DNA of 64,000 bases, taken from contig VGFC01000004.1 in assembly GCA_016869045.1 (NCBI GenBank), positions 40 to 64,039 of the forward strand. Reading direction: 5' to 3'. Both the position numbers and the translations under genes were made by a program. This stretch comes from Armatimonadota bacterium. Its GTDB lineage: Bacteria > Armatimonadota > Zipacnadia > Zipacnadales > VGFC01. Below, piece by piece: positions 20,687-63,970 of the stretch (positions are counted from its first letter, which is position 1; every line of letters starts with the position of its first letter). The notes below the pieces were generated by a model. It was given only the letters and a program-made list of their open reading frames with translations. It had not been told where the DNA came from and did not search any database.

Positions 20687-20746
20687 GTCGTAGGTCGGGA
20701 TTCCAATCCCGACACTGCCTTTCTCAACACAATCCGTGCTGCGCCC
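20687..20746. repeat. family B partial copy (right half: cgtcgtaggtcgggattccaatcccgacactgcctttctcaacacaatccgtgctgcgccc)
   Basis: Shares the internal hairpin GTCGGGATtCCAATCCCGAC and the right terminal repeat TCAACACAATC with the full copies at 30672 and 59041. Confidence 0.6.
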
Positions 20747-25803: not shown

Positions 25804-27297
25804 ATGCGCGGGTGGCCGGTCGTGTTGGTCGCGGCAGTCCTGATACTCACGTTGCCCTTGGTCCTGGCGGGATGCAAGGGGCAGACCGAGAAGCCGTCAA
25901 CCGAGACGGCCTCCTCCGAGACGGACGAGCACGAAGGCCATGACCACGAGGCCGAAGCCGCGAAGTCCCCTGGTGAGGAGGGCAAGGAGGAGGCGAAGAA
26001 GCCTTCGGCGGCTGCCAGCGCCGTCCTGAAGGACCTCACCTCCGACGACGACTCCCTCCGAATCTCGGGGCTTCAGCGGGTCGCCAAGCTGGCCGCCGGC
26101 GAGGAGCGCGACCAGGTCCGAGACCAGGTCCGCGAGCTCGCCGTCGGCCGGGACATGAGCGCCGAGGTGCGACAGGCGGCGATCGAGGCCTGGTCACCGT
26201 GGGCCACGGAGGACCCCCAGCCTCTGTTCCTGGCCGCCGACTCCCCCCATGCGCCCGTGCGGATGGCGGTCGCCGTCGCGCTGCGGAAGGTAGGCCGCCC
26301 GGACGTGCTGGAGGTCATCGAGAAGCTCAAGGCGGACCCGGACAGCACGGTGAAGGCCGCCGCCGCCGAGACGTACGCGGGCTTCATGCGACAAGCCGAC
26401 ACCGATCAGTCGATCGGCCTGCTGATCGCCGACCTGGGTCACCCGGACGGCGACCGCAGCGCACAGGCCGGAATGACCCTCGAGCAGCGCGGCCGCGAGG
26501 ACCGGCGCGTGATCCCGAAGTTGGTGCAGGCCCTCCGCACGAGTCCCGACCCCGCCAAGCGCCACAGCTGCGCCGTGGTCATCGCCCTCGCCTCGGCCGG
26601 CACGCATCCGGGTCAGAAGCGCTTCGCCTCAACCGTCAACGCCACGTTCCGGTCGGATGCCACCCCCGCTCCGGTCTACGTCGAGGGAGCCCCTGCCCTG
26701 ATCGAGGCCCTCGAGAAGGACCCGTCCCCCATGGTTCGCGAGGCGGCGGCGTTCGGTCTCGGAGTGCTCGGCGTCCCGCAGGGCGCGAAGCCGTTGGGCC
26801 GCGCGCTGAGCGACCCGGACCCCTACGTCCGGCGAAGGGCGGCGGCCGCACTCATCGTCGTGCCGCCGGACGAGGTGAAGGACCAACTTCTGCGCGCCGC
26901 CCGCCGCGACCCGTCGCCTGAGGTGCGCCGCTTCGCCGTCGAGGCCATGGCCGGCCTCAAGGGCGATGACGCCGCAATGACGGTGGCGACCTGCCTGCGG
27001 GACCCGAATCCCGACGTCCGTCTCTATGCGTGCGAGGTGCTGAAGAAGATCGGGACCCGCGCGCAGACCCAGGCGCTGCTCTGGATGTTCGAGGACCCGG
27101 ACGAGGATGTCCGCTGGAAGGCCGTTGCCGCGGTCGCCGAGTTCGCCGATCCCGCAGCGAAGAGCCAGCTCATTGCCGCCCTCAACGATCCGTCGCCGCG
27201 CGTCGCCCTCGCCGCCGAACGCGGGGTCCATCGTCTCGGCATCGGCGCCCGCGTCCTCACCAAGGAAGAGCGCGCCGGCCTGGGACCCAAGCAATGA
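25804..27297 (+). CDS. HEAT-repeat (PBS-lyase-like) lipoprotein
   Basis: Signal plus lipobox (LVLAGCKG), then about 10 HEAT-like repeats (…DPSPEVRRFAVEAMAGL…, …DPNPDVRLYACEVLKKIG…). Confidence 0.6.
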   Translation: MRGWPVVLVAAVLILTLPLVLAGCKGQTEKPSTETASSETDEHEGHDHEAEAAKSPGEEGKEEAKKPSAAASAVLKDLTSDDDSLRISGLQRVAKLAAGEERDQVRDQVRELAVGRDMSAEVRQAAIEAWSPWATEDPQPLFLAADSPHAPVRMAVAVALRKVGRPDVLEVIEKLKADPDSTVKAAAAETYAGFMRQADTDQSIGLLIADLGHPDGDRSAQAGMTLEQRGREDRRVIPKLVQALRTSPDPAKRHSCAVVIALASAGTHPGQKRFASTVNATFRSDATPAPVYVEGAPALIEALEKDPSPMVREAAAFGLGVLGVPQGAKPLGRALSDPDPYVRRRAAAALIVVPPDEVKDQLLRAARRDPSPEVRRFAVEAMAGLKGDDAAMTVATCLRDPNPDVRLYACEVLKKIGTRAQTQALLWMFEDPDEDVRWKAVAAVAEFADPAAKSQLIAALNDPSPRVALAAERGVHRLGIGARVLTKEERAGLGPKQ

Positions 27298-27318: not shown

Positions 27319-27378
27319 AGTGGGGCGGGCATTCTTGCCCGCCAAGGGGCCCCGGCGGGCAAGAATGCCCGCCCCACT
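27319..27378. terminator. perfect 25-bp inverted repeat (AGTGGGGCGGGCATTCTTGCCCGCC / GGCGGGCAAGAATGCCCGCCCCACT) with a 10-nt palindromic loop, downstream of the HEAT gene
   Basis: Arms are exact reverse complements. It lies 22 nt after the stop and is followed by GTTTCC. Candidate strong transcription terminator or protein-binding palindrome. Confidence 0.5.
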
Positions 27379-28225: not shown

Positions 28226-28342
28226 GGGAATCCGCGATTCTCGTCCGAGCTGTTCCCGTGTAGGGGCGCGATTCATCGCGCCCGCCCATGTAGGGGCGCC
28301 ATTCATGGCGCCCAAGAACCGATACCGCGGATTCTCATACAG
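28226..28342. repeat. family A element copy 1 (MITE-like: GGGAATCCGCGATTC… two hairpin units …CAAGAACCGATACCGCGGATTCTCATACAG)
   Basis: Units tgtaggggcgcgattcatcgcgccc and atgtaggggcgccattcatggcgccc, each a 7-bp-stem hairpin with TTCA loop; ends are an imperfect inverted repeat (GAATCCGCG…CGCGGATTC). Lies upstream of the AOR gene. Confidence 0.7.
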
Positions 28343-30272: not shown

Positions 30273-30548
30273 ATGTCGGTAACGGTGCGCGTTCCACCGT
30301 ACTGGAGGCGACACACCGGCCGCAGGGCCGATGTCTCCGCCGAGGGCGCGACGGTCGGCGAGGCCCTCGCGGATGTCGTGCGGCAGCATCCCGAGCTGGG
30401 CCCGCTCCTCTATGGGGACGACGGGGAACTTGCTGCCGGCCTCTCCGTGTTTCTGAACCGTGAATCGATCACCCGGCGAGATGGTGAGCGCACCCCCGTC
30501 TCGCCGGGCGACTCTCTCATGGTTGTGCTTGCCATTGCGGGAGGGTGA
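30273..30548 (+). CDS. MoaD/ThiS-family sulfur-carrier-like protein (C-terminal GG)
   Basis: 91-aa beta-grasp-sized ORF ending …MVVLAIAGG; 15 nt downstream of the AOR stop. Confidence 0.55.
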   Translation: MSVTVRVPPYWRRHTGRRADVSAEGATVGEALADVVRQHPELGPLLYGDDGELAAGLSVFLNRESITRRDGERTPVSPGDSLMVVLAIAGG

Positions 30549-30560
30549 ACCTCAGCCAAA

Positions 30561-30819
30561 CAGGAATCCGCGATTCCCGTCCGAGCCGTTCCCATGTAGG
30601 GGCGCGATTCACCGGCCGTTGTTGTGTAGGGGCGCGATTCATCGCGCCCGCCCATGTAGGGGCGCCATTCAGATTGTGTTGAGAAAGGGCCCCGTCAAAG
30701 GAAGAACCCTCTCCTACGCGCTCTACGTGGCTCGTAGGTCGGGATACCAATCCCGACAATGCCTTTATCAACACAATCTTCATGGCGCCCAAGAACCGAT
30801 GTCGCGGACTCCCATACAG
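30561..30819. repeat. family A element copy 2, interrupted by a nested family B MITE
   Basis: Left end CAGGAATCCGCGATTCCCGTCCGAGCCGTTCCC plus hairpin units; right end CAAGAACCGATGTCGCGGACTCCCATACAG. The third hairpin unit ggcgccaTTCA|…|TTCAtggcgcc is split by the insertion. Confidence 0.7.
30672..30778. mobile_element. family B MITE (107 bp; TIRs GATTGTGTTGAGAAAGG / CCTTTATCAACACAATC; internal hairpin GTCGGGATACCAATCCCGAC) inserted in a family A hairpin loop with a 4-bp TTCA target duplication
   Basis: Read directly. TTCA at 30668-30671 and 30779-30782 flanks the insert. Removing the insert restores the canonical unit ggcgccattcatggcgcc. Confidence 0.7.
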
Positions 30820-30855
30820 CCGGATGCCCCTCACACAACCACCCGGAGCCGACCC

Positions 30856-32301
30856 ATGAGCAGCATGTGGGCAGTCGTCGCGACGCCCGCCCGACGGATG
30901 GCGGGCGTTCTTGCCATCGCCGCCTTGGCCACCGGCCTCGGCCACGCCGCCGATGAGGAGACCTGCGTCACCTGCCACGAGCAGGCCACGCCCGGCATCG
31001 TCCTGCAGTGGCGCAGTTCGGAGCACGCCAAGGTAGGCGTGCAGTGCTCGCAGTGCCATGCCGCCAAGGCCGGTGAGCCTGACGCGTTCGACCACTACGG
31101 CGAGACGGTCGCGATCATCGTCTCGCCCCAGGACTGCGGGCAGTGCCACGCCAGGGAATTCGCGGAGCAGAAGGGCTCGCACCACGCGAAGGCCGGGGAG
31201 ATTCTCGGCTCGCTCGACAACCTCCTGGGCGAGGTCGTCGGTGGCGAGCCCGCGGTTAACGTCGGCTGCCGGCAGTGCCACGGGTCCATCGTGAAGGTCG
31301 ATGCCAAGGGGCAACCGACGCCCGGCACGTGGCCGAACACGGGCATGGGCCGGATTAACCCCGACGGCTCGCGCGGCTCCTGCTCGGCGTGCCATGCGCG
31401 ACATGCGTTCAGCGTGCGCCAGGCCCGGCAGCCGGAAGCGTGCGGCAAGTGCCACCTCGGCCCGGACCACCCCCAGATGGAGGTCTGGGAGGAGTCGAAG
31501 CACGGCATCATGTACCGCGCCACCCGCGAGGAGCTGAAGCTCGATGCGGACCCCTGGCGAGCCGGCAAAGAGTACTTCGTCGGCCCGACCTGCGCCTCGT
31601 GCCACATGAGCGCAGCGGGAGAGCAGCCGGTCACCCACGATGTCGGCGAGCGCATCTCCTGGACGCTCCGCCCCGCGATCTCCGCGAAGCTCAACCTCAT
31701 CGTGCTGGAGAACGGAGCGCAGGTCGATGTCCTCGGCGACGACCCGCAGCTCCCGAAGGTCGGCGACAGCTACACGCCCCCAGGGAAGGAGGCCCAGAAG
31801 GTCCGCGCGGTGCTCAACTGGCAGGCGCGGCGCGAGCGGATGCAGGATGTCTGCCGACAGTGTCACGCCGTGCCCTTCGTGCAGCAGGCCTACGCTCAGT
31901 TCGACGAGGCCGTCATCCTGTACAACGAGAAGTTCGCGAAGCCCGGCAAGGCCCTCATCGACGACCTCCGCAAGGCCGGGAAGATCACGCCGGTGGACTT
32001 CGACGACCCGATCGAGTGGACGTGGTATGAGCTATGGCATCACGAGGGTCGGCGGGCGCGCCACGGCGCAGCGATGCAAGGCCCTGACTACGCGTGGTGG
32101 CACGGCATCTACGACGTGGCCAAGACGTTCTACCAGCACCTCCTCCCGCAGGTCCGGGAGGTAGCCGGACCGGAACTCGCGGACGAGCTGCTGAAGCGGG
32201 ACGTCTACACCGTGCCCGGACACGAGTGGCACCGCGATGGCATGAGCAAGGACGCGCTGGAGAAGATGCAGCAGTTCTACCGAGAGCGCTACGGCCAGTA
32301 G
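30856..32301 (+). CDS. octaheme c-type cytochrome, hydroxylamine-oxidoreductase (HAO/eHao) family
   Basis: ATG at 30856 (MSSMWAVVATPARRMAGVLAIAALATGLGHA signal). Eight CxxCH motifs (CVTCH, CSQCH, CGQCH, CRQCH, CSACH, CGKCH, CASCH, CRQCH) in about 480 aa plus …WHHEGRRARHGAAMQGPDYAWWHG…. The track ORF start at 30460 lies in repeat DNA. Confidence 0.55.
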   Translation: MSSMWAVVATPARRMAGVLAIAALATGLGHAADEETCVTCHEQATPGIVLQWRSSEHAKVGVQCSQCHAAKAGEPDAFDHYGETVAIIVSPQDCGQCHAREFAEQKGSHHAKAGEILGSLDNLLGEVVGGEPAVNVGCRQCHGSIVKVDAKGQPTPGTWPNTGMGRINPDGSRGSCSACHARHAFSVRQARQPEACGKCHLGPDHPQMEVWEESKHGIMYRATREELKLDADPWRAGKEYFVGPTCASCHMSAAGEQPVTHDVGERISWTLRPAISAKLNLIVLENGAQVDVLGDDPQLPKVGDSYTPPGKEAQKVRAVLNWQARRERMQDVCRQCHAVPFVQQAYAQFDEAVILYNEKFAKPGKALIDDLRKAGKITPVDFDDPIEWTWYELWHHEGRRARHGAAMQGPDYAWWHGIYDVAKTFYQHLLPQVREVAGPELADELLKRDVYTVPGHEWHRDGMSKDALEKMQQFYRERYGQ

Positions 32302-34758: not shown

Positions 34759-35577
34759 CTACAGCCCCAGTTCCGTCCGCGCGTAACGCACGCCCTGCTC
34801 CACCGCCTCATGCTCCCGCTCCCACGTCTCCTGCGCGGAAGCCCCGGCCGGAACCAGGCTCTCGAGCTGCACACTCGCCTGCGGGGCTTGTTCGTGCAGC
34901 AGGGCCACGATCTCCCGCAGCGGCACGATGCCCTCGCCGAGGGGCACGCCGTGCATCAGCGCTGTGTCCGCCTGGAGGGTGATCGTCGCGTCCTTCAGGT
35001 GGACCATCAGCACGAGGGGCGCGAGGTTGCGAGCCGCCGCCAACGGCTCCTCCAGCACCGCCAGCGAGTTGCCCGTATCGAAGCAGAAGCCCAGGTTCGG
35101 GCTGCCGACTCGCGCGGCGATCTGAAGCAGCTCCTCCGACCGCAGCTCCATGTGGTTCTCGATGGCGACCTTCAGCCCGAGTTCCTCGGCGAACCGCATC
35201 GTCTCGCGTAGGTTGGCGACCGCCGCATCTGCTTGCACCTGCACGGGCGGCTCGTAGCGGCTGCGGCTGACGAACGTACGCAGCACCGGCGACCCGAGAA
35301 CCGCCGCCGCCTCCAGCCACGGCCTCAGCGTCCCGAGGTCGGTTCCCATGTAGCCCAACTCCAGAGCCAGACCGCGCTCCCCTGCGACCTCACGCACCCG
35401 CTGCAGGTGCGCCTCCTCCAGCGACCCAACATGCCCCGCGTCGATGTAGACGGCCTCTAGCCCGAGCCCCGACGCGCGTTCGAGCACGTCGAAGATGTCG
35501 AACGCCTCCGGCACCCCGGGCTGTCCGGCCAGCCCGAACGAGTGATGGTAGCTGTAGGAACCGAGCCCGAACCTCAT
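34759..35577 (-). CDS. sugar phosphate isomerase/epimerase (xylose-isomerase-like TIM barrel)
   Basis: MRFGLGSYSYHH…AIENHMELRSEELLQIA…GFCFDTGN… (AP-endonuclease-2/XylA-like metal ligands). Start trimmed to ATG 35577; the upstream 35 codons lie in family A repeat DNA. Confidence 0.7.
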   Translation of the reverse strand: MRFGLGSYSYHHSFGLAGQPGVPEAFDIFDVLERASGLGLEAVYIDAGHVGSLEEAHLQRVREVAGERGLALELGYMGTDLGTLRPWLEAAAVLGSPVLRTFVSRSRYEPPVQVQADAAVANLRETMRFAEELGLKVAIENHMELRSEELLQIAARVGSPNLGFCFDTGNSLAVLEEPLAAARNLAPLVLMVHLKDATITLQADTALMHGVPLGEGIVPLREIVALLHEQAPQASVQLESLVPAGASAQETWEREHEAVEQGVRYARTELGL

Positions 35578-35626
35578 CGGCGCCCCTCCCTCGTTGCCCT
35601 GCAGCGTGGAAAGCACCGCCCCCGCC

Positions 35627-35708
35627 GTGTAGGGGCGTGATTCATCACGCCCAAGCGTAGGGGCGCCATTCATGGCGCCCAAATGTAGGGGCGCGATTCA
35701 TCGCGCCC
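35627..35708. repeat. family A hairpin array copy 3 (three units: …gcgtgattcatcacgcc…, …gcgccattcatggcgcc…, …gcgcgattcatcgcgcc…)
   Basis: Intercistronic between the isomerase and the Gfo/Idh/MocA gene. Each unit is a perfect 7-bp stem with TTCA loop. Confidence 0.7.
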
Positions 35709-35731
35709 CTCCTCGCCTCTCACACGCCCGC

Positions 35732-41821: not shown

Positions 41822-41905
41822 CTCGTAGGTCGGGATTCCAATCCCGACACTGCCTTTCAACACAATCCGTGCTCTGCCCACGGCCGGGCGCAGCACGCTG
41901 CGCCC
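41822..41905. repeat. family B partial copy plus flanking hairpin (…gtcgggattccaatcccgacactgcctttcaacacaatc cgtgctctgccc … gggcgcagcacgctgcgccc)
   Basis: Right-half MITE-B sequence and the same CGTGCTCTGCCC extension and second hairpin as the full copy at 59041. Confidence 0.55.
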
Positions 41906-44905
41906 CTACTTCAGCCTCCACAGCCGCGTGCTTTCTCCCCCCATCTCGACCCGGAACTCCGTCGCCTCCTCCGCAATCGTCTCTCCGCTGAAGAGGTCCG
42001 TGACGGTCGCCCGCTTCGGCAGCCGAACCGTCCGCGTGCCGGCGTTGTCCACGAACAGCGACAGCAGGCTCGCGTTCGCATAGACCGTGTCATCGCCGTC
42101 CACGTAGATGTGCACGCCGGCGTCGCGGGCCAGCTTGCGCAGCAACCGCGCCGGCAGTACCGGCGCCGCCGAGAAGATCGAAGTCCAGCCATCCATCTGT
42201 TTGACCACCAGGCCCGCGCGCTCGCTGCCCGCGAGCTTCCCGAGCACCTGCGCCTCGGGATCGTCCGCCCACACGACCGGGGCGAAGGCCTGGTCTGTCC
42301 CGTATGCGCTGCCATCCGCGAGCGCCACCTTCAGCGGCGCCGCCTCCTCGCTGAAGCGCAGGCGGATGCCCGTGAGGTCGAGCATCGACCGCTCGTCGAG
42401 CTTCCCGCCGCGCACGAGCCCCGGCGCGTAGAGCCACAGAGCCGTCGCGCCGTTGCGCTTGACGACCGTCTCGATGGCCGCGCGCTGCTCGCCCGTCGGC
42501 GCCCACGCATTCGCCAGGATGTACAGTCGCTGCGGCGGCATGTCCGCCAGGTCGCTCAGGTCGTAGTACCCGAACGGCGCGCCGCACCGGCCTAGCTGCG
42601 GGAGCTGGTGCAGCATGAACCAGTCGGTCACGCCGTTGTGGCTGCGCAGGTACCCGAGGCTTTGCGGATCGACGATGAACGCGATCTGGCTGACCGGCCG
42701 GCGATCCCACGCGACCGTCTCATCGGCGATCGCCTTCATCTGCCCGATGTCCTTCAGGATGCGCGGGTCGTCGTACCAGCCGCCGCCCATGTCGAACCAC
42801 CACTTGCCGCACGCGTTCGAGATGACGTTCGCAAACTCGCGCTGCTGCATCGCGAGGCTGCCCTCGTACGTGTCCTGCTTACCCCACTCACCCTTCTGGC
42901 CGCCGGTCAGCCACGTGCGGATGTCGTTCTCGTCGAACCACATCTTCCCGTGCAGCTTCACCGAGTCCGTGAGCGACATGAAGTGGCTGAAGCCGCCCGC
43001 CAGATTCCGGAACGCGTAGCTCGTCGGGCTGGTCAGGAAGTCCACGTCCGGCGACTGCCAGACCTTGAGCGGCGCGAGGTGCCCCGCGTTCTGCTGGCGC
43101 TGCTCGAAGAGCTGCAGCACGTATCCGTAGAACGTGCCAAACAGCGTTTCGCCGTTCGTCGCCTGCTTCACGACACGCGCGAAGTAGTCGATCGTCTCGG
43201 CCGTGAGGTCAGACAGGAAGAGCTGGAAGTCGATGACATCCCGCGCGGAGGTCGGATCGCGGAACGCCCCGTGCTCCGTCGCGACGCGCTTCTGGTAGCG
43301 CGGAATCGCCGCCGTCGCCAGCGTGACGCCCGCCTGCCCCCACGCCTGCTGCAGGGCCGCATCCGTCCCGTACTTCGCCGTGAGCCACTGGCGGAAAGCC
43401 TCCACCGTCGGCTTGCTGTAGTCGCAGTACTTGCCCTCGTTGGCGCCCCAGTACATCCACTCCTCGGTGGTCCCGCTCGCGACGTGGTACCCGATCACCC
43501 GGTCCGCGTAGGGCGCCTGGCGGATGTGCTCGATGTACCTGGTCAGCGCATACGCGGTGTCCGTGCGCCAGACCTCCGACGCCCAGGACGGGCACGGCTT
43601 CCGCTCCGTCTCGTAGAAGAGCTTCGACTCGCCCTCGCCGTCATCGTAGAGCACGAGATGGTCGGGATGCAGCTTGTCCCACCAGTCCGGCGAGTTCACG
43701 TAGACCCGCGGGAAGATGTACGCGTTCGGGTCCGCCTCCAGGATCTTCAGGATCTGCTCGTCGAGCTGGCTGAAGTCGAAGTGGTCGCCCGGCTCCAGCC
43801 ACGCCTGCCGCGCGAAGCCCTGCCACGTGTGGCGGCTGCACGTCGAGGGGAACGAGTAGATGTGCACCCCGTGCTCGCCGACCTGCCCGTAGTACTTCGA
43901 GTTCGGGTTGTACGTCATGTAGACCATCGCCGAGTTCGGCTTCCCGTCGATGAACAGCGTCGGCGCGCCGTTGTGCATCTTCACCTTCGCGACAACGGGC
44001 TTCGGTGTGCGCTGGTTCATCTTCACCGTTCCGATCACCCCATCCGTGCGGTCCTTGTACACGACATCCGCGAAGCCCACGCGCAGCTGCACCTCATGCG
44101 GCCCGCCCCAGGCATAGCGCGGAATGCGAAGCTCTGTGCTGACCTCTACCTCGGCCCCGACCGGCCACTCGGCCGGCCGCGTCGCGGTGGTCACCGCCTG
44201 CTCCACCATGGGTTCGCCGTTGCGTAGCAGCCGCAGCGCAACCTCCGCGTCGGCCGGCAGCGCATCCGCCGCCTTCACCCGCAGGCGCAGCGGAACCGTC
44301 GCTCCCGCCTCGGCGCGCTCCGGTAGTTCCACCTCGCTGACGCTCACGAGTGGCGGTTTCGGCCGCTGCACGCTCAGCTCACCGAGGAAGACCTCGTACT
44401 TCACATCCGCCTTCACATCGAACGCGATGATCGCGAGGTACTTCGCGGGCCAGTTGAACGCACCGTCCGGGTCCTTCGACCATCCCGCGAGCGCGAACTC
44501 GCTCCACGGCCAATCGACTCGCTGCCACTTCCCGTCCGCCTCCAACCGCACCGGCTTGGGCGTGTACTCCGCATTCCCCCGGTCGGCGATCTTCACCGAC
44601 AGCGTGAATGGCGCGTCCGTGTTCCGGATCAGCAGCGAGAGCGTCTCAAAGGGCCGCTCGATCTCGCGCCGCCGGAAGATGTCGTTGAACCCGAACCCCG
44701 GCTTCATCGTGAAGGCCCAGCGCGTCACGTCTCCGCGCTCCGGGTCCTTCGCGTCCTCCAGGCTCCACTCCGTCATTTCGCTGCGCAGGCGCGCCTCATC
44801 CCGCGCAAGGTCGAAAGCCGCAGACGGATGCCCGGGCCACAGGACCTCGGTGCGCATCTCCTGGGTGCTACCTGAGCAGGCCAGCAAAGCCAGCAACGCC
44901 AGCAT
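41906..44905 (-). CDS. large lipoprotein, putative glycoside hydrolase (clan GH-A/GH42-like TIM barrel with N-terminal beta-sandwich domains)
   Basis: Start MLALLALLACSGST (lipobox). A central region with GH-A-like strand motifs (…YIFPRVYVNSPDWW…, …EEWMYWGANEG…) weakly suggests a TIM-barrel hydrolase; family is not certain. The N-terminal 34 track codons lie in family A repeat. Confidence 0.35.
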   Translation of the reverse strand: MLALLALLACSGSTQEMRTEVLWPGHPSAAFDLARDEARLRSEMTEWSLEDAKDPERGDVTRWAFTMKPGFGFNDIFRRREIERPFETLSLLIRNTDAPFTLSVKIADRGNAEYTPKPVRLEADGKWQRVDWPWSEFALAGWSKDPDGAFNWPAKYLAIIAFDVKADVKYEVFLGELSVQRPKPPLVSVSEVELPERAEAGATVPLRLRVKAADALPADAEVALRLLRNGEPMVEQAVTTATRPAEWPVGAEVEVSTELRIPRYAWGGPHEVQLRVGFADVVYKDRTDGVIGTVKMNQRTPKPVVAKVKMHNGAPTLFIDGKPNSAMVYMTYNPNSKYYGQVGEHGVHIYSFPSTCSRHTWQGFARQAWLEPGDHFDFSQLDEQILKILEADPNAYIFPRVYVNSPDWWDKLHPDHLVLYDDGEGESKLFYETERKPCPSWASEVWRTDTAYALTRYIEHIRQAPYADRVIGYHVASGTTEEWMYWGANEGKYCDYSKPTVEAFRQWLTAKYGTDAALQQAWGQAGVTLATAAIPRYQKRVATEHGAFRDPTSARDVIDFQLFLSDLTAETIDYFARVVKQATNGETLFGTFYGYVLQLFEQRQQNAGHLAPLKVWQSPDVDFLTSPTSYAFRNLAGGFSHFMSLTDSVKLHGKMWFDENDIRTWLTGGQKGEWGKQDTYEGSLAMQQREFANVISNACGKWWFDMGGGWYDDPRILKDIGQMKAIADETVAWDRRPVSQIAFIVDPQSLGYLRSHNGVTDWFMLHQLPQLGRCGAPFGYYDLSDLADMPPQRLYILANAWAPTGEQRAAIETVVKRNGATALWLYAPGLVRGGKLDERSMLDLTGIRLRFSEEAAPLKVALADGSAYGTDQAFAPVVWADDPEAQVLGKLAGSERAGLVVKQMDGWTSIFSAAPVLPARLLRKLARDAGVHIYVDGDDTVYANASLLSLFVDNAGTRTVRLPKRATVTDLFSGETIAEEATEFRVEMGGESTRLWRLK

Positions 44906-44960
44906 GTGTGCCGTCACTCCTCCCACGCGGGGCTCCGTGGTTCCCGTCCTCGCCGCCCTC

Positions 44961-45014
44961 ATGTAGGGGCGCGATTCATCGCGCCCAAGTGTAGGGGCGC
45001 CATTCATGGCGCCC
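44961..45014. repeat. family A hairpin array copy 4 (two units)
   Basis: atgtaggggcgcgattcatcgcgccc aagtgtaggggcgccattcatggcgccc, between the beta-helix gene stop and the GH-like gene start. Confidence 0.7.
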
Positions 45015-47227: not shown

Positions 47228-47365
47228 CTGGGACCGCGCGCACCCTTGCGCGCCTGCGGTGGCAGCCGTGGCCGTCCACCTGGGACCGCGCGCACCCTTG
47301 CGCGCACTGCTGTCGCACCATCGCCGTCGTAGGTCGGAGCGCCGCTCCGACACGCCGCCTACGGC
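47228..47365. repeat. 26-bp direct repeat (ctgggaccgcgcgcacccttgcgcgc, twice) plus a family-B-related hairpin (cgtcgtaggtcggagcgccgctccgac)
   Basis: Read directly in the spacer between the beta-helix gene start and the heparinase-like gene stop. Confidence 0.45.
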
Positions 47366-54190: not shown

Positions 54191-54283
54191 GCCGTTCCCA
54201 TGTAGGGGCGCGATTCATCGCGCCCAAGTGTAGGGGCGTGATTCATCACGCCCAAGAACCGCTGTCGCGGATTCCCCCATACG
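54191..54283. repeat. family A element copy 5 (GCCGTTCCCA - two hairpin units - CAAGAACCGCTGTCGCGGATTCCCCCATACG)
   Basis: In the divergent region between the S8 protease and purL; same unit and tail as copies 1-2. Confidence 0.7.
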
Positions 54284-56783: not shown

Positions 56784-56892
56784 CCCCATGTAGGGGCGCC
56801 TGCGCTAGCCCCCATGTAGGGGCGCCTGCGCTAACCCCCATGTAGGGGCGCGATTCATCGCGCCCACATGTAGGGGCGTGATTCATCACGCC
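56784..56892. repeat. family A array copy 6 (two variant units cccatgtaggggcgcctgcgcta(g/a)cc, then two canonical hairpin units)
   Basis: Immediately after the purL stop. Confidence 0.65.
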
Positions 56893-57066
56893 CCATGCCG
56901 TTTCGTCCTTGCATCCCGTCCTTGCATCCTCTCCGCCTGCGGCGGCCCTCTTGGCCCGCCCGGTTGTTTGCATCTGGCAAGGGTTTTTCTGAAACCTCGT
57001 ACAGACCACGCTGTCTACACCTCCAATCGGGAGTGTAACTGCTCCCGGGCTGAAAGGACTGGGTCG

Positions 57067-59029: not shown

Positions 59030-59208
59030 GGCAGAGCGTGGATTGTGTTGAAAAAGGGCTGCGTCGAGGAAGCACGCCTCTCATACGCGCCGTACGCGGC
59101 TCGTAGGTCGGGATACCAATCCCGACACTGCCTTTATCAACACAATCCGTGCTCTGCCCAGGTGTTGCTGAACGGACGGCATGGGCAGAGCACGCTCTGC
59201 CGCTACAA
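59030..59208. mobile_element. family B MITE full copy 2 (core 59041-59147) with extended inverted flanks GGGCAGAGCGTG/CGTGCTCTGCCC and a trailing hairpin GGGCAGAGCACGCTCTGCC
   Basis: TIRs GATTGTGTTGAAAAAGG / CCTTTATCAACACAATC; internal hairpin GTCGGGATACCAATCCCGAC. Upstream (58981-59020) is a degenerate family A unit (gtacgggcgcgattatggtcatg). Confidence 0.65.
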
Positions 59209-59331
59209 CGACCCGACGATGTCAGGTTATTTCGTGCATGACCATCATCACGCCCGACGCCGTGCGTCTGATACACCCTCTGAGGCCGCACGCAGATCGT
59301 GGACGAACATCGGGAGGGGCGAGATCCTGAC

Positions 59332-60366
59332 ATGACCATCCCACTAGCAGACATCGCAGCAATGGTCAACGGTAGCCTCACCGGCGACGGGCGCACGCTC
59401 ATCGTGGGCGTGGGCAGCCTGGAGACGGCGCGGGAAGGTGAGATCACCTTCATCGACAAGCCCGAGCTCCTCTCCGTGGCCGACGTCAGCCCTGCGGCGG
59501 CGCTGATCGCGCCGGCCAACGCGCCGCGCGGCAGGAAGCCCATGATCCTCACCGAGGATCCGCGCCTGGCCTTCAGCAAGGTCCTGGAGATCTTCGCCCC
59601 CAAGCGCAACGTCTACCGCGGCGTGCATCCGCGGGCGGTCGTCGGCGAGAACGTGACGCTGAGCGAGAACGTCAGCATCGGCGCTCACGCCTACGTGGGC
59701 GACGGAACCACGCTGGAGGCCGGGGTCATCATCTACCCCAATGCGTACGTGGGCGACAACGTCACTCTGGGCGCGGGCACGATCATCTGTCCCCAGGTCT
59801 TCGTGGGTGACCGCTGCGTCCTGGGCCACCGAGTCGTGGTCCATGCCGGCGCCTCCATCGGCGGGGACGGCTTCGGTTACGTTCAGGAGGGCGGCAAGCA
59901 CCGCAAGATCCCGCAGATCGGCGTCGTCATCATCGGCGACGACGTCGAGATCGGCGCCAACTCCACGGTCGATCGCGCGACGCTGGGCGCCACCAAGATC
60001 GGGCGCGGCACCAAGATCGATGACCACGTACACATCGCGCATAACGTCGTCATCGGCGAGGACTGCCTGCTCTGCGGCCAGGTCGGCATCTCCGGCTCGG
60101 TGACGGTGGGCGATCGCGTTATCATGGCCGGCCAGGTCGGCGTGAACGACCACATCACGATCGGCAGCGACATCATCATCGGCGGCCAGGCCGGCGTGTT
60201 CAGCGACCTACCCGAGCCCGGCTACTACTCCGGCTATCCGGCCAAGCCTCACAACCACTCGCTCCGCGTGTTGGCGGCCACCCAGAAGCTCCCCGACATG
60301 GCCAAGCGCCTGAAGGCCGTCGAGCGCCTGCTCGAAGAACTCCAGGCTGACGCGTCGAAGGACTAA
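59332..60366 (+). CDS. lpxD: UDP-3-O-(3-hydroxyacyl)glucosamine N-acyltransferase
   Basis: Left-handed beta-helix hexapeptide repeats along the length and an LpxD-type N-terminal domain; ATG 59332 with GGGAGGGG RBS. Confidence 0.8.
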   Translation: MTIPLADIAAMVNGSLTGDGRTLIVGVGSLETAREGEITFIDKPELLSVADVSPAAALIAPANAPRGRKPMILTEDPRLAFSKVLEIFAPKRNVYRGVHPRAVVGENVTLSENVSIGAHAYVGDGTTLEAGVIIYPNAYVGDNVTLGAGTIICPQVFVGDRCVLGHRVVVHAGASIGGDGFGYVQEGGKHRKIPQIGVVIIGDDVEIGANSTVDRATLGATKIGRGTKIDDHVHIAHNVVIGEDCLLCGQVGISGSVTVGDRVIMAGQVGVNDHITIGSDIIIGGQAGVFSDLPEPGYYSGYPAKPHNHSLRVLAATQKLPDMAKRLKAVERLLEELQADASKD

Positions 60367-60432
60367 CCGCCCTCGCCGTCGAACTACGGCACCATCGCGC
60401 CCAAGCGGGGTCCCGCGGTTCCTCTTGCCGTC

Positions 60433-60514
60433 ATGTAGGGGCGCGATTCATCGCGCCCATGTGTAGGGGCGTGATTCATCACGCCCAAATGTAGGGGCGC
60501 CATTCATGGCGCCC
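60433..60514. repeat. family A hairpin array copy 7 (three units)
   Basis: atgtaggggcgcgattcatcgcgccc atgtgtaggggcgtgattcatcacgccc aaatgtaggggcgccattcatggcgccc. Confidence 0.7.
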
Positions 60515-60589
60515 GAGGGTCCGTATCGTGGGTTCCTGTCTTGGCGGAGGCCCCAATCGGGCCTCCGCTTCGGTAAACCGACACCACAG

Positions 60590-60990
60590 GCCAGCACCAT
60601 GACCTCGCGCACCACGCTCGCCGTCTTGGAGGACAGGCATTCTTGCCTGTCCCAGCCCGCCGCGTTGGAGGACAGGCATTCCTGCCTGTCCAAGCCCCCC
60701 GCGTTGGAGGACAGGCATTCTTGCCTGTCCAAACCGCACCCGGAACGTTGGGGACTGACGACGAAACCCAGCCCCATCGGGTTTCGTTGTCTGTCCCCGA
60801 AGTTGCCTTTCGCGTTCCGTCACTACCCCCGACGAGCCGACACCATGACCTCGCGCACCACGCTCGCCGTCCTGGAGGACAGGCATTCTTGCCTGTCCAA
60901 GCCCGCCGCGTTGGAGGACAGGCATTCTTGCCTGTCCGAGCCCGCCGCGTTGGAGGACAGGCATTCCTGCCTGTCCACTTGCCTGTCCAG
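60590..60990. repeat. duplicated module: 31-bp leader (caccATGacctcgcgcaccacgctcgccgtc) plus 3 x 38-bp repeats, each holding the perfect 22-bp palindrome GGACAGGCATTCTTGCCTGTCC; copies at 60590-60730 and 60837-60990, separated by 107 bp carrying a 9-bp-stem hairpin
   Basis: Read directly; six palindromes in total with unit spacing 38 bp. The array is in frame with the downstream secreted-protein ORF (peptide repeat ALEDRHSCLSKPA). Confidence 0.7.
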
Positions 60991-62782
60991 GGTCTACCGA
61001 CTGTGCCTTGGCCTACTGGCACTGACCCTCGCCGCCGCCGGGAGCGCCGATCGCCGCCTGGACTTCGCCGCTCGCGAGCGCGCGGAGGGCCCTCTGCGGA
61101 TCGGGGAAGTGACGGGCGGCGGGCAGGTGCTCATCCGCCTGCGGAGCAAGGCCGGGTCCGTCCTCCCGCGCGCCCAGAAGGCCGCCGAGGGCCTGCAGAA
61201 GGCCGCGGTTGCAGGCCTCTCGCCTCCCGCCCTGACCGTGGTGGTCGGGCCCGACGGCTCGTCGATCCTCAAAGGCGATGGGCAGGAGATTGTCACCGCC
61301 GACAAGGAGACGGCGCAACTCTCCTCCACGACCCCGACGGCTCTGGCCGCGAGCTGGCAGAGCGCACTCAACACGGTGTTCCGCGAACCCTACCTGGTTC
61401 TGTCTGAGCCGGACGGCCTCCAGGTCCCCGTGGACGAGGCGCGCTACGTCGCCTACGGCGGGCCGCTTGGGAAGCACCTCTCGGCAACCTCCGGCGACGA
61501 GGCCGTGGCGCTGGCGAAGCTGGAGCCGACGAACCGCCGCCTCAAGGTCTACGGGGCCGGTCCGGGTGACACCGCGGTCGCGCTGAAGGCGGGCGCCCTC
61601 AGCCTCGGCCTCCCGGTGCAGGTCCGCTTCTGGGCCGCGAAGATCCTCCCAACCGCCGTGGCGGAGCTAACCGGCAGCGGGCAGGACGGGCACACCGCAA
61701 CCAGGGTTGCCGTCAACGCCGCCCTCGCCGCCGCGCAGCCTCAGCCCGGCGCCACCGTCTCCGCGATCTCCACCGACCGCGAGGGGCCGCTGTTCCGTGT
61801 CGGTGTCCTGGCCACCGGCCAGGACTGCATCGACGCCAAGAGGCAGGTCGAGGTGACACTGAAGTGGGTCACGCCGCCGACCCTCGAGCCGGTGGACGTG
61901 TTCGTGAGCAACTCCCCCGAGCGCATCGTCGCCCTCGGAAGCCTCATGCGCGAGCAACTCCTCCCGGACCGTGCGGCGCGCTTCTTGTACCATCACGTCA
62001 ACTCGACGGAGCAGACCGTCCTCTTCGTTGCCCGCATCGCGAATGCGGGGCCCGGACCCGCCGCCGCGCACGTGATCCTCGGCGAGTCCGGCCCGGACAA
62101 GGACGAGTTGGGCGTCGGCCACGCCGCGGCCGCGCGGTTCTGGAGGGAGCAGCGGACCGGGAGCGGCTACGTCCTGCAGGTCCCGCCGATGACTGCCTCC
62201 GACATCGTGCGCACGCCCGTCGGGCGCGAGGCCATCGTCAGCGGCCTGGCCCAGATCACCCCGCTCTCGTCATCGCCGCTGCTCCTCGAAGTCGCCGCCG
62301 TGCCGGTCGGCCACGAGACGGAGTGGGTCGAGCCCCTCCGGCCGGAGGACTACGCCTCGCCCAAGTTGACGACCTTCCGCTTCGGTGCGCGCAAGGCCGT
62401 CGAGCTGAAGCACGAGATCGGCGGGGCGTGGACGTTCTTCAGCCTGGGCAAGGAGGGCTCGACGAACGAGGCCGGCACGTACCTGGCCGGCGACTACGGC
62501 GTCCTGCACGAGATCGACCTCGAACTCACGAACGCCCGTGAGCAGACCGGCTTCGCGGAGATGGAAGTGCGCGCGAGCGGCGGCGTGATGCGCGGGCTGT
62601 TCCTGATCGACAACGTCCTCCACGAGACCGGTCTTCTGGTCGGCACCCAGCAGGAACGGGTGCTCAAGCTGGAGGTCCCCTCCGGAGCGACGCGTCGTGT
62701 CCGCATCGAGACGATTCCGGAGTCCGCCTCCAACTACCCGGTGCACCTGATCGTCCACTCGCGGCTGCGGAACGTGCCATGA
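60845..62782 (+). CDS. hypothetical exported/membrane-anchored protein (start uncertain: ATG 60845 or 60598, both inside the palindrome array)
   Basis: Hydrophobic segment LCLGLLALTLAAAGSA right after the array, then about 590 aa of Ala/Gly/Val-rich globular sequence with no confident family match. No in-frame start codon lies between the array and the hydrophobic segment. Confidence 0.4.
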   Translation: MTSRTTLAVLEDRHSCLSKPAALEDRHSCLSEPAALEDRHSCLSTCLSRVYRLCLGLLALTLAAAGSADRRLDFAARERAEGPLRIGEVTGGGQVLIRLRSKAGSVLPRAQKAAEGLQKAAVAGLSPPALTVVVGPDGSSILKGDGQEIVTADKETAQLSSTTPTALAASWQSALNTVFREPYLVLSEPDGLQVPVDEARYVAYGGPLGKHLSATSGDEAVALAKLEPTNRRLKVYGAGPGDTAVALKAGALSLGLPVQVRFWAAKILPTAVAELTGSGQDGHTATRVAVNAALAAAQPQPGATVSAISTDREGPLFRVGVLATGQDCIDAKRQVEVTLKWVTPPTLEPVDVFVSNSPERIVALGSLMREQLLPDRAARFLYHHVNSTEQTVLFVARIANAGPGPAAAHVILGESGPDKDELGVGHAAAARFWREQRTGSGYVLQVPPMTASDIVRTPVGREAIVSGLAQITPLSSSPLLLEVAAVPVGHETEWVEPLRPEDYASPKLTTFRFGARKAVELKHEIGGAWTFFSLGKEGSTNEAGTYLAGDYGVLHEIDLELTNAREQTGFAEMEVRASGGVMRGLFLIDNVLHETGLLVGTQQERVLKLEVPSGATRRVRIETIPESASNYPVHLIVHSRLRNVP

Positions 62783-63783
62783 GGCTGCGCGACACGAGTG
62801 AGGGTGAGTTTCTGCGCGCCGTCCGCCAGACGCTGGGCGGCGCCGGGGGCCGAGTGTGTCTGGGGATCGGGGACGATGCCGCAGTCCTCGACTGCCCGCC
62901 CGGGCGCTCCCTGGTGCTCACCTGCGACGCCGCGGTTGAGGGCCGTCACTTCCGCCGCGAGTGGTTCTCTCACCGCGAGATCGGCGAGCGCGCCGTGCGC
63001 TGCGCCCTCAGTGATCTCGCCGCCATGGGCGCCGAACCCGTGGCGGTGCTGCTCACCCTGATCGTGTCACCCGAGGAGGATGAAGTGGCGGCCCGAGCGG
63101 TGGTCGAGGGCGCGGCCGCGGCGTCCGCGGAGTTCGGCGCGCGCCTGGCCGGCGGCGAGACCGTCGGCGCTCAAGGTCCCCTGGTGCTCGACGTGGCGGC
63201 TGCCGGCCTGGTACGCACGGGGCGGGAGTTGCGCCGCTCCGGGGCGCAGCCCGGCGACGTCATCGCGGTCAGCGGGACCCTCGGCGACGCGGCCGCCGGC
63301 CTCGCCGCGCTCCGCGCCGGTCTTGGTGGCCCCGAGGCGACAGCGGTGATCCGTCGCTACAAGGTCCCCCAGCCCCAAGTAGCTCTCGGCGTCTTGCTGG
63401 CCCAGTGCGACGGCGTGCACGCAGCCATCGACATCAGTGATGGTCTCCTCATGGACGCGGGTCACATGGCCGAGCAGAGCGGGGTAGGCATCGAGCTGTT
63501 CGCCGACGCTCTCCCCCTCTCCCCCGCCTGTGAAGCGGTCGCCCGGGAACTCGGGGTGCAGCCCTCGGCATGGGCCCTTGGCGGCGGGGAGGACTTCGAG
63601 CTGCTAGTTGCCATATCGCCCCTGGAGTTCGGGAGAGTGCACCATCGGGCCAAGCAGGACTGTGCACTTGAGCTACTCGGCATCGGGCAGGTGACCGAGG
63701 GGCACGGCGTCCGCCTCACAGGGCCTGACGGAACGGACCTCGCCTCGCCCGCAGCGGGCTGGGACCAGTTCCGCTCATCGTAG
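62779..63783 (+). CDS. thiL: thiamine-monophosphate kinase
   Basis: AIR-synthase-related fold with ThiL motifs (…IGDDAAVLD…LVLTCDAAVEGRHF…DLAAMGAEP…ISDGL…GGEDFELL…). Start overlaps the upstream stop (ATGA). Confidence 0.75.
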   Translation: MRLRDTSEGEFLRAVRQTLGGAGGRVCLGIGDDAAVLDCPPGRSLVLTCDAAVEGRHFRREWFSHREIGERAVRCALSDLAAMGAEPVAVLLTLIVSPEEDEVAARAVVEGAAAASAEFGARLAGGETVGAQGPLVLDVAAAGLVRTGRELRRSGAQPGDVIAVSGTLGDAAAGLAALRAGLGGPEATAVIRRYKVPQPQVALGVLLAQCDGVHAAIDISDGLLMDAGHMAEQSGVGIELFADALPLSPACEAVARELGVQPSAWALGGGEDFELLVAISPLEFGRVHHRAKQDCALELLGIGQVTEGHGVRLTGPDGTDLASPAAGWDQFRSS

Positions 63784-63791
63784 TCCTTCAC

Positions 63792-63970
63792 ATGTAGGGG
63801 CGCGATTCATCACGCCCAAATGTAGGGGCGCGATTCATCGCGCCCAAGTGTCGGGGCGTGATTCATCACGCCCAAATGTAGGGGCGTGATTCATCACGCC
63901 CAAATGTAGGGGCGCGATTCATCGCGCCCAAGTGTAGGGGCGCGATTCATCGCGCCCTATTGTGTAGGGG
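63792..63970. repeat. family A hairpin array copy 8: six tandem units plus a truncated seventh, running to the window edge
   Basis: Units of 27-28 bp with no spacers, alternating gcgcgattcatcgcgcc / gcgtgattcatcacgcc / gcgcgattcatcacgcc variants. Confidence 0.75.

Follow-up and report, generated by a model that had tools for sequence, protein, structure and literature searches.

A duplicated array of REP-type palindromes at the start of a putative secreted-protein gene in an uncultured Armatimonadota bacterium

The DNA analysed here is a 64-kb stretch (the window) of a 68% G+C contig from an uncultured Armatimonadota bacterium. Between lpxD (59299–60366) and thiL (62779–63783) it contains a gene whose maximal open reading frame spans 60506–62782 (758 aa) and whose stop codon overlaps the start of thiL. 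The protein is recorded at NCBI as MBM3471849.1 ('Armatimonadetes bacterium'), and the available start calls differ: JGI places the start at ATG 60599 (727 aa) and NCBI places it at ATG 60845 (645 aa). No match to the protein sequence was found in Pfam, NCBIfam or the PDB, and a confident AF2 model compared by Foldseek returned generic beta-sandwich matches only (TM ≤ 0.16). The product is a conserved, beta-rich secreted protein. We found 21 homologs, and the 16 full-length sequences (587–631 aa) that were aligned besides the 727-aa JGI version of the window protein all have a short N-terminus, then a hydrophobic signal-peptide core, then a conserved ADRLL.F.ARER motif. In the window, the signal-peptide core RVYRLCLGLLALTLAAAGSA is encoded at 60989–61048 (+ strand). 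It is homologous to all ortholog N-termini, and the N-terminal helix is modelled with low pLDDT. The conserved mature protein, encoded at 61049–62782 (+), begins with DRRLDF at 61049. Counted from CTG 60983, the N-terminus would read MSRVYRLCLGLL, which has the form of a textbook signal peptide.

The region upstream of the signal-peptide core carries six copies of the palindrome GGACAGGCATTCYTGCCTGTCC, all on the + strand, at 60631, 60670, 60709, 60877, 60916 and 60955, where none was expected from 100 shuffles. As the original prediction had stated, the copies form two blocks of three. The repeat period is 39 bp, or 13 codons (TRF consensus 39 bp, 89–95% matches), and not the 38 bp first given. 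Nor are the palindromes perfect over 22 bp, as had been proposed; in each, the two 9-bp arms of an inverted repeat enclose a 4-nt loop that is itself not palindromic and reads TTCT in four of the six copies and TTCC in the other two. The family form of the palindrome at this locus is GGAG-GACAGGCATTCYTGCCTGTC. Within a unit, a TTGGAGG head is followed by the 9-bp stem with its TTCY loop and a 12-nt tail, and the 17-nt segments that separate the palindromes are themselves repeated. Block 1 (60626–60731, +) has its palindromes at 60631–60652, 60670–60691 and 60709–60730, and block 2 (60872–60976, +), whose three units are in the frame of the gene, has them at 60877–60898, 60916–60937 and 60955–60976. 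Five of the six units contain an in-frame TTG (60626, 60665, 60704, 60911 and 60950), and the first unit of block 2 has CTG at this place. Directly after the last unit comes a half-copy, ACTTGCCTGTCC (60977–60988, +), which constitutes a seventh, partial repeat.

Each block is preceded by the same 31-bp leader, caccATGacctcgcgcaccacgctcgccgtc, at 60595–60625 (+, with ATG 60599) and at 60841–60871 (+, with ATG 60845). The two copies are identical, which agrees with the description given beforehand. The upstream copy lies in an ortholog-like native context of about 30 nt and a hairpin (60544–60568, +; 10-bp stem, no T-run) that is located between lpxD and the host gene and is kept in orthologous loci without the array. 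Segments 60590–60731 and 60836–60977 are 94% identical over 142 nt. The earlier proposal of a tandem duplication of the whole 5' module, start codon included, stands; the duplication in fact takes in part of the native 5'-UTR as well. The intervening spacer (60732–60840, +) forms an imperfect hairpin that is far larger than the 9-bp stem originally reported, with 26-nt arms (60744–60769 and 60779–60804) that are 85% complementary, a perfect core of 13 bp and a DNA fold of −23 kcal/mol. When the 104-bp spacer was compared by blastn with all fetched loci, it matched this strain alone (L008–L010), so we recognise no mobile element in it.

All six palindromes form hairpins in a 511-nt RNA fold of the region (−263.8 kcal/mol, z = −10.9). 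A single palindrome folds as DNA with −10.8 kcal/mol (z = −5.5), and its 9-bp stem and 4-nt loop are those of a short, G+C-rich REP stem-loop. The same arrangement recurs in three other contigs (L008, L009 and L010) that were assembled independently, and L008 differs solely by a 9-bp duplication in the spacer. We therefore consider the structure to be real, and an assembly artefact is ruled out by the agreement of the four assemblies, among which the number of units does not vary.

The window is rich in REP-type hairpins. One of them, GTAGGGGCGYSATTCATSRCGCCC, occurs 22 times, always on the + strand; its copies are clustered at a 28-bp period and include compensatory stem variants. Two more families with a cGTAG head are also present. 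Three GTAG-headed copies of GTAGGGGCGYSATTCATSRCGCCC, again with a 28-bp period, lie just 3' of lpxD (60435–60514, +), which is an ordinary extragenic placement. The core GGCATTCTTGCC does recur, as had been noted, at 27319–27378, where an inverted doublet (REPIN-like) of a sister REP, GTGG-GGCGGGCATTCTTGCCCGCC, lies 22 nt after a stop codon and has a DNA fold of −38 kcal/mol. The doublet has the same loop as the array palindrome and differs from it by compensatory changes in the stem; the variant at 27324, GGCGGGCA/TGCCCGCC, is of the compensatory type by which REP sub-families are recognised. This inverted form was not encountered at the array, where all six copies are head-to-tail.

A search for further sites of the palindrome had been suggested, and such sites exist, albeit not elsewhere in the window: within these 64 kb the GGAG-headed sub-family is confined to the host-gene locus, and it was found in many other genomes and on contig L112. 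L112 derives from the sample that also yielded L009 and represents the same genome or a sister genome; the GTAG-headed REP that is the hallmark of the window occurs on it five times. On L112 the GGAG-headed REP occupies two ordinary intergenic sites, one with a tandem pair after a TGA stop codon and the other with a single copy before an ATG with a Shine-Dalgarno sequence. One copy on this contig reads GTAGGAGGACAGG. The single intergenic copy is followed by a tail, ACTACTTGTCTGTCC, that resembles the half-copy at the end of the array.

A reference scan of one genome per species located the exact 25-mer GGAGGACAGGCATTCYTGCCTGTCC in 91 or more genome stretches, which belong to several phyla and have flanks specific to each genome. 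At least 25 loci with the 25-mer occur in the isolate Aquisphaera insulae. The Armatimonadetes MAG VGFB01 has it at 21 or more loci or contigs, many of them with inverted doublets 49 nt apart; the contig names of this MAG bear the neighbouring Ga0194126 sample number. Among the matches listed are also an Ignavibacteria MAG with megabase contigs, Pirellulales, Thermoguttaceae, Phycisphaerales, several Acidobacteriota and single contigs of further phyla. On 21 metagenome contigs the palindrome is repeated in tandem and in one orientation, 2 to about 10 times per array and at periods of 34–44 bp; most of these arrays are GTAG-headed, and several lie immediately 3' of stop codons. Sister copies keep the head and the loop, and their stems differ by compensatory pairs (GACAGGCA/TGCCTGTC, GACAGACA/TGTCTGTC and GGCAGACA/TGTCTGCC). 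Clusters of this REP are mostly extragenic, with only 2 of 117 appearing to be intragenic in a census that used codon-position GC, as open-frame length alone misleads in high-GC genomes (it flagged the intergenic L112 segment 4452–4516). The palindrome string had no match in a full-text search of 8 million papers and is absent from those supplements of Di Nocera 2013 (PMC3733652) that were covered. No Rfam family matched any part of the window at its gathering threshold.

An association of the palindrome with RAYT genes was seen in other genomes only. Four open reading frames flanked by it pass the NCBIfam model NF047646, 'REP-associated tyrosine transposase' (curated cutoff 80 bits), with scores of 93.3 bits (L054, Aquisphaera), 84.4 bits (L069, Ignavibacteria), 85.0 bits (L100, Pirellulales) and 84.2 bits (L119), the last of which also matches Pfam Y1_Tnp. 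REPs occur on both sides of the RAYT gene in L054, L069 and L119, and L100 has the same palindrome upstream and a stem-variant copy downstream. The flanking copies are GGAG-headed in L054, L069 and L100 and GTAG-headed in L119. The RAYTs found beside this palindrome are merely 50–55% identical to that of L119. In two additional loci, L115 and L117, RAYT genes are indicated by tblastn only. A tblastn search of the 64-kb window with a RAYT query gave no match.

Based on their sequence, dispersal and company, we identify the palindromes as REP elements. They are short, selfish, hairpin-forming repeats that belong with the GTAG-tagged super-family but have a GGAG head, and repeats of this kind are mobilised by RAYTs. 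The GGAG head is found in all six window copies and in all 111 copies that were retrieved with the GGAG pattern, and it departs from the strict GTAG tag. We therefore file the palindrome as a tag variant of the super-family and not as a strict member, since degenerate tags (GYAG, GYRG, GTRG, GTMG and GTGG) have been published (PMC3733652) and since SELEX with the Marinomonas REPtron Mb strongly enriched only the final two tag positions.

Orthologs of the host gene preserve states with zero units and with one unit. In the first of these (P0003 on contig L007, 85% protein identity), the start ATG-MTSCTTL runs directly into the signal peptide; the locus reads ATGACATCGTGCACCACGCTGAAGCACCGACTG and MTSCTTLKHRLCLGLL, the latter corresponding to ATG ACA TCG TGC ACC ACG CTG AAG CAC CGA CTG TGC. 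In the second (P0002, 86% identity, six contigs L001–L006), the same ATG and first codons are followed by a 45-bp in-frame insert with one GGAG-headed REP, MTSHTTPAVSPLLEDRHSCLSGTHRLCLGLL, and then by the same signal peptide. In the window, ATG 60845 and the same first codons are followed by three 39-bp units, the half-copy and the signal peptide, which amounts to 126 extra bp, also in frame. The three proteins are roughly equidistant (86, 85 and 83% identity). Upstream of the insertion point, all three lineages have kept the native ATG together with its context, ATGACNTCGNNCACCACGC at the second leader copy being kept in both the zero-unit and the one-unit orthologs. Because the ortholog series shares this ATG and the first codons, the leader can be understood as a junction at which the gene's own 5' end runs into the 5' flank of a REP unit. 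From about 60805 to its 3' end, the spacer can be aligned with the 5'-UTR that is native to the orthologs (gcctttcgcgttccgtcactacccccgacgagccgacaccATG versus gcctccgc-ttcggtgaaccgacaccacgagccgagaccATG), which indicates that a local duplication carried along part of the 5'-UTR, the ATG and three units.

We propose that a single REP inserted itself at the 5' end of the secreted-protein gene, where it came to lie between the native ATG (MTS.TT) and the hydrophobic core of the signal peptide, probably in the common ancestor of the window lineage and the L001 lineage. A single insertion in that ancestor is the simplest history, although loss of a unit in L007 may be an alternative. In the window lineage, the REP and 17 bp of flanking DNA would then have been amplified head-to-tail to three copies. 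The fixed spacing of the palindromes follows from tandem amplification of a single 39-bp unit, and this period kept the reading frame. Afterwards, a local duplication of about 246 bp placed a second set of the three units upstream of the gene, together with the ATG and part of the 5'-UTR. In the interval 60300–61100 we detected neither a sigma-70 promoter-like site nor an intrinsic terminator. As the stop codon of the gene also overlaps thiL, the REPs probably sit within an lpxD-gene-thiL operon transcript, and the upstream block would most likely be a passenger duplicate on that transcript. The main expected effect of the array would be strong mRNA and single-stranded DNA hairpins at the start of the gene.

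Whether the array is translated cannot be read from its openness. It is indeed open and in frame with the gene, as the original prediction had it. However, the 39-bp unit, read by hand, is free of stop codons in all six frames, and four other open reading frames (109–254 aa) cover a whole three-unit block: 60643–61407 (+), 60448–60777 (−), 60479–60964 (−) and 60504–61022 (−), the last two of which span both blocks. An open frame is therefore uninformative here. Codon-position GC gives GC3 values of 0.83–0.96 over the array, and these are not counted as coding evidence because they reflect repeat composition in a unit that is open in six frames. Block 1 with the spacer is not coding-like (GC3 0.62–0.67, versus about 0.9 in genes).

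More is learned from the start codons. Between the last unit and the signal peptide there is no ATG, GTG or TTG in the gene frame, which upholds the earlier claim that no start lies between the array and the hydrophobic segment, but in-frame TTGs do lie inside the units. After TTG 60950, the only start-like codons in frame are CTGs, and the next canonical start is a GTG inside the conserved mature domain. Because canonical start codons lie only before or inside the array, ATG 60845 is most likely the functional start, or else the TTG of a later unit may serve. Translation probably includes the last unit at least, and probably the whole of block 2 from ATG 60845, in line with the NCBI call. The suggestion that the array is a coding repeat that can expand and contract is thus borne out in outline, by the in-frame ortholog series and by the lack of a canonical downstream start. 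Some initiation may also occur at ATG 60599, which is in frame and has the same immediate context. The GGAGG of each unit had been taken for a potential ribosome-binding site. It is the family head tag, a variant of GTAG, and no gene-frame start codon lies 5–10 nt downstream of it.

Preservation of the frame is the other observation from which we infer translation through the units. The inserts are in frame in two lineages and the period is a multiple of three, for which the chance is about 1/9 to 1/27, a figure that lends modest support; arrays elsewhere have periods of 34–44 bp and show no multiple-of-three constraint. A GTAG head in the register of the array would yield an in-frame TAG, and a GGAG head does not. 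This is compatibility with the reading frame and not adaptation, because GGAG is the usual family head in several genomes. An independent in-frame case is found in L065, where an inverted REP doublet lies inside the open reading frame of a glycyl-radical enzyme, between the PFL-like part and the Gly_radical domain. This doublet encodes VDRQECLSS...LEDRHSCLSS, with the same LEDRHSCLS peptide as the array. The peptides that the array would encode, if translated, include MTSRTTLAVLEDR and LEDRHSCLSK. One to three REP units, read as LEDRHSCLS.PAA repeats, would lengthen the n-region of a cleavable Sec-type signal peptide and would be removed on export, which would explain why the insertion is tolerated. 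The predicted n-region of 47 residues, with seven acidic residues, would be unusual for a Sec signal peptide. We regard this explanation as a whole (REP identity, N-terminal insertion, 39-bp amplification, duplication and likely read-through translation) as probable.

The alternative that survives best, although we judge it unlikely, is that the array is an untranslated structured leader. The units would then lie in the 5'-UTR, translation would begin at a non-canonical codon such as CTG 60983, to give MSRVYRLCLGLL, and the hairpins would act on RNA stability, on ribosome access or as a split Shine-Dalgarno sequence that brings GGAGG near the start. Many N-terminal REPs are probably extragenic, with translation starting 3' of them (Di Nocera 2013, PMC3733652). 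REPs are known to work as RNA elements. CTG 60983 is in frame and located 6 nt past the stem, looping out the 22-nt hairpin would place GGAGG at a normal Shine-Dalgarno distance, and the native start lacks a Shine-Dalgarno sequence. However, CTG starts are very rare in bacteria, and the native ATG and its context are kept upstream of the insert in three lineages. An untranslated leader would also need no preservation of the frame. Yet the one-unit insert of L001 is in frame as well, and the sole alternative start further downstream in that gene, a TTG, falls midway along the hydrophobic core.

A bolder combination, which we consider improbable, would have the mobile REP remodel the translation start of the gene, and would have one REP-RAYT pair, with the 22-nt palindrome unchanged, spread across at least six phyla. 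In this case a looped-out hairpin may put GGAGG beside the in-frame TTG of the next unit or beside CTG 60983. If true, a gene whose native ATG has no Shine-Dalgarno sequence would have acquired new starts driven by one, and the number of units and the second ATG would modulate its expression as well as how long the n-region is.

Very unlikely is a selected coding repeat, in which the 13-residue LEDRHSCLS.PAA repeats would function as an N-terminal module of variable length, for instance in targeting, retention or antigenic variation. The region is open with a 39-bp period in frame, and the lineages differ in the number of units (0, 1 and 3). The peptide, however, is a translated REP that is mostly non-coding elsewhere, and its unit is open in all frames. 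Located upstream of a cleavable signal peptide, the repeats would be removed, and their number is constant in four assemblies of this population. Where units differ from each other, the changes mostly alter the encoded residue or fall in the loop, and they give no hint of purifying selection.

An operator or iteron array, with sites for a dimeric transcription factor or an initiator and perhaps a regulon that includes 27319, was favoured by the inverted repeats at fixed spacing near a gene start and by the related core at 27319, but we give it almost no credence: the identical 25-mer recurs over many unrelated loci and phyla with unrelated flanks, mostly after stop codons, beside RAYT genes and often in long tandem arrays or inverted doublets; the orthologous genes manage with one unit (L001) or none (L007), so that the sites are not conserved among orthologs; the spacing is that of a tandemly duplicated 39-bp unit in which the DNA between palindromes is repeated too; and there is no adjacent regulator gene and no promoter-like site at 60300–61100. 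With the REP identity established across phyla and together with RAYTs, no grounds are left for the operator, iteron or regulon idea. Two other repeat classes were also rejected. The 17-nt segments between palindromes are repeated and are not the unique spacers of a CRISPR array, and a type III toxin-antitoxin RNA repeat array is excluded by the downstream gene, which encodes a conserved secreted protein with orthologs that lack the repeats.

Read as a REP insertion, the locus is a clean and comparatively resolved case in which a REP lands in a coding sequence, expands codon-wise and drags a start codon into a duplication, while orthologs preserve the zero-unit and one-unit states. It also has value for annotation, as REP arrays in high-GC genomes yield many spurious or over-extended open reading frames and the JGI and NCBI starts disagree here. 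The presence of the palindrome with RAYTs in Planctomycetota and Ignavibacteria, and its recurrence in Armatimonadota, Acidobacteriota and other phyla, is relevant to the question of how such systems spread. The locus reveals no new regulatory system.

The closest known systems are the GTAG-tagged REPs and REPINs with their RAYT (TnpA-REP) transposases (Nunvar 2010, PMC2817692; Bertels & Rainey 2011, PMC3116915; Di Nocera 2013, PMC3733652; Corneloup 2021, PMC8266576). The elements described here share with them a G+C-rich stem-loop of 20–40 bp, a 4-nt head tag, high-copy dispersal, compensatory stems, inverted doublets, copies after stop codons and tandem clusters reiterated with flanking DNA, and the RAYT genes flanked by the same palindrome in L054, L069, L100 and L119 resemble REPtrons. 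They differ in the GGAG head, found in this genome and several others, in the head-to-tail arrays, an arrangement said to be under-represented, and in that one palindrome is common to several phyla; the window itself has no RAYT. In contrast to operator and iteron arrays, with which it shares regularly spaced inverted repeats near a gene start, the array has repeated inter-site DNA and no adjacent regulator gene, and its sites recur across genome and phyla and are absent from orthologous promoters.

Rickettsia palindromic elements offer a parallel in that functional genes tolerate selfish palindromes which add a peptide in frame. RPE-1 units are considerably longer than the 22-nt palindrome. 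The hosts of RPEs are obligate intracellular Alphaproteobacteria, whereas here a 22-nt REP grows in 39-bp steps within a signal peptide. In-frame insertion of these Rickettsia elements into protein-coding genes is mentioned by Di Nocera 2013 (PMC3733652).

The nearest counterparts are the intragenic REPs catalogued by Di Nocera 2013 (PMC3733652), who described clusters tandemly reiterated with flanking DNA, some encoding 43–82 aa, and intragenic REPs in excess at N-termini. As in those cases, the units lie inside open reading frames, encode tens of residues and carry the same ambiguity of translation. Here, the ambiguity is narrowed by the conserved upstream ATG, the lack of a canonical downstream start and orthologs with 0, 1 and 3 units, and the start codon has been duplicated along with the array. 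The locus is thus best classed among the REP clusters that the GTAG super-family forms, and within these among the intragenic, N-terminal ones already recorded in that work (PMC3733652). What is new is modest: a GGAG-headed variant, a codon-sized head-to-tail amplification in a signal peptide with a 0/1/3 series among orthologs, the co-duplication of a start codon, and the same 22-nt palindrome accompanying diverged RAYTs in several phyla.

The array of GGAG-headed REP palindromes lies at the 5' end of a gene whose mature part (61049-62782) encodes a conserved secreted protein of 600 aa, for which we found 21 homologs; those listed under a named organism all bear the label Armatimonadetes or Candidatus Zipacnadales. 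No sequence match to the protein was found in Pfam, NCBIfam or PDB. AF2 models it confidently (pLDDT 90.6), with several beta-sandwich-like domains, and a fold search with this model returned no convincing match (TM at most 0.16). The gene order OmpH-hypothetical-lpxD-X-thiL, where X is the host gene, is retained in every longer contig from close relatives, and the lpxD-X-thiL core is visible in the shorter ones. The stop codon of the host gene overlaps the thiL ATG.

About 30 nt 5' of the native host-gene ATG sits a hairpin with a 10-bp stem (GCGGAGGCCC-loop-GGGCCTCCGC; window 60544-60568). It recurs in the orthologous loci that have one palindrome unit (L001, 2938-2962) and none (L007, about 278-302), so that the three lineages share it; the stem is the same throughout and the loop varies. 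A T-run is lacking, and the terminator scan makes no call there. Judging from sequence, a possible role for this hairpin, which lies between lpxD and the host gene, is in the processing or stability of the mRNA. Within the array, the spacer between the two blocks differs between the window (60818-60835) and an independently assembled contig of the same arrangement (L008, 4228-4246), the latter having a 9-bp tandem duplication (cgtcactac, encoding RHY) that represents a population variant. The duplication keeps the frame from ATG 60599, a single observation with a chance expectation of 1/3.

REPs overlap open reading frames elsewhere as well. In the window, GTAG-headed REPs fall within the 5' ends of three maximal ORFs: 44963-45014 in ORF 41906-45007 (minus strand), 30626-30649 in ORF 30460-32301 (plus strand), and 35629-35680 in ORF 34759-35682 (minus strand). 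These ORFs are probably over-extended calls, not coding REPs, an annotation hazard that is also met at the array itself. On contig VGFB01000533.1, an inverted REP doublet (1243-1312) lies in frame within a glycyl-radical enzyme ORF with PFL-like and Gly_radical domains, where it encodes ...VDRQECLSSDSTGEPLEDRHSCLSS...; as read from the sequence, this adds an independent example of read-through of the array's REP, here within a conserved enzyme. A tandem REP pair on Ga0194111_10022583 (2599-2664) is likewise in frame, within an 895-aa ORF, at the boundary of a radical-SAM part and a DUF2344 part. This pair may have fused two genes, or may occupy a natural linker.

The 22-nt palindrome of the array occurs in at least six phyla and flanks genes for REP-associated tyrosine transposases (RAYTs) in Planctomycetota, one Ignavibacteria MAG and unassigned metagenome contigs (L054, L069, L100, L115, L117 and L119). 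Relative to the L119 RAYT, those of L054, L069 and L100 share only 50-55% protein identity, and the L115 and L117 matches are weaker (29-34%, tblastn). The presence of one palindrome beside such divergent RAYTs and in so many phyla points either to transfer between phyla or to a single REP-RAYT pair that has been conserved for a very long time. We found no description of RAYT loci sharing one palindrome across phyla in the searchable literature.

Further REP families are found at 20694-20713, 30738-30757, 41829-41848, 59107-59126, 47333-47351 and 41886-41905. They comprise four copies of cGTAG-GTCGGGATWCCAATCCCGAC and one of cGTAG-GTCGGAGCGCCGCTCCGAC, all in plus orientation, and a single GGGCGCAGCACGCTGCGCCC-ctac palindrome with its tag on the minus strand. 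Two copies of GTGG-GGCGGGCATTCTTGCCCGCC form a REPIN-like inverted doublet (27319-27378), which lies 22 nt past the stop at 27297, folds as DNA at -38 kcal/mol, and has the TTCT loop in common with the GGAG-headed REP. GTGG has previously been described as a variant of the head tag in Opitutus terrae REPs (PMC3733652).

The dominant family in the window is GTAGGGGCGYSATTCATSRCGCCC, with 22 copies in clusters of one to six at a 28-bp period (28260-28313, 30626-30649, 35629-35712, 44963-45014, 54202-54253, 56842-56893, 60435-60514 and 63794-63957). Three stem variants are related by compensatory pairs (GCGCG/CGCGC, GCGTG/CACGC and GCGCC/GGCGC). GTAG is on the plus strand in every copy (22/22), including those beside minus strand genes, and between 4 and 52 kb of the window the plus strand has a negative GC skew. 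Taken together, the uniform orientation and the skew suggest that insertion of these REPs is linked to the replication strand, as in IS200/IS605 elements.
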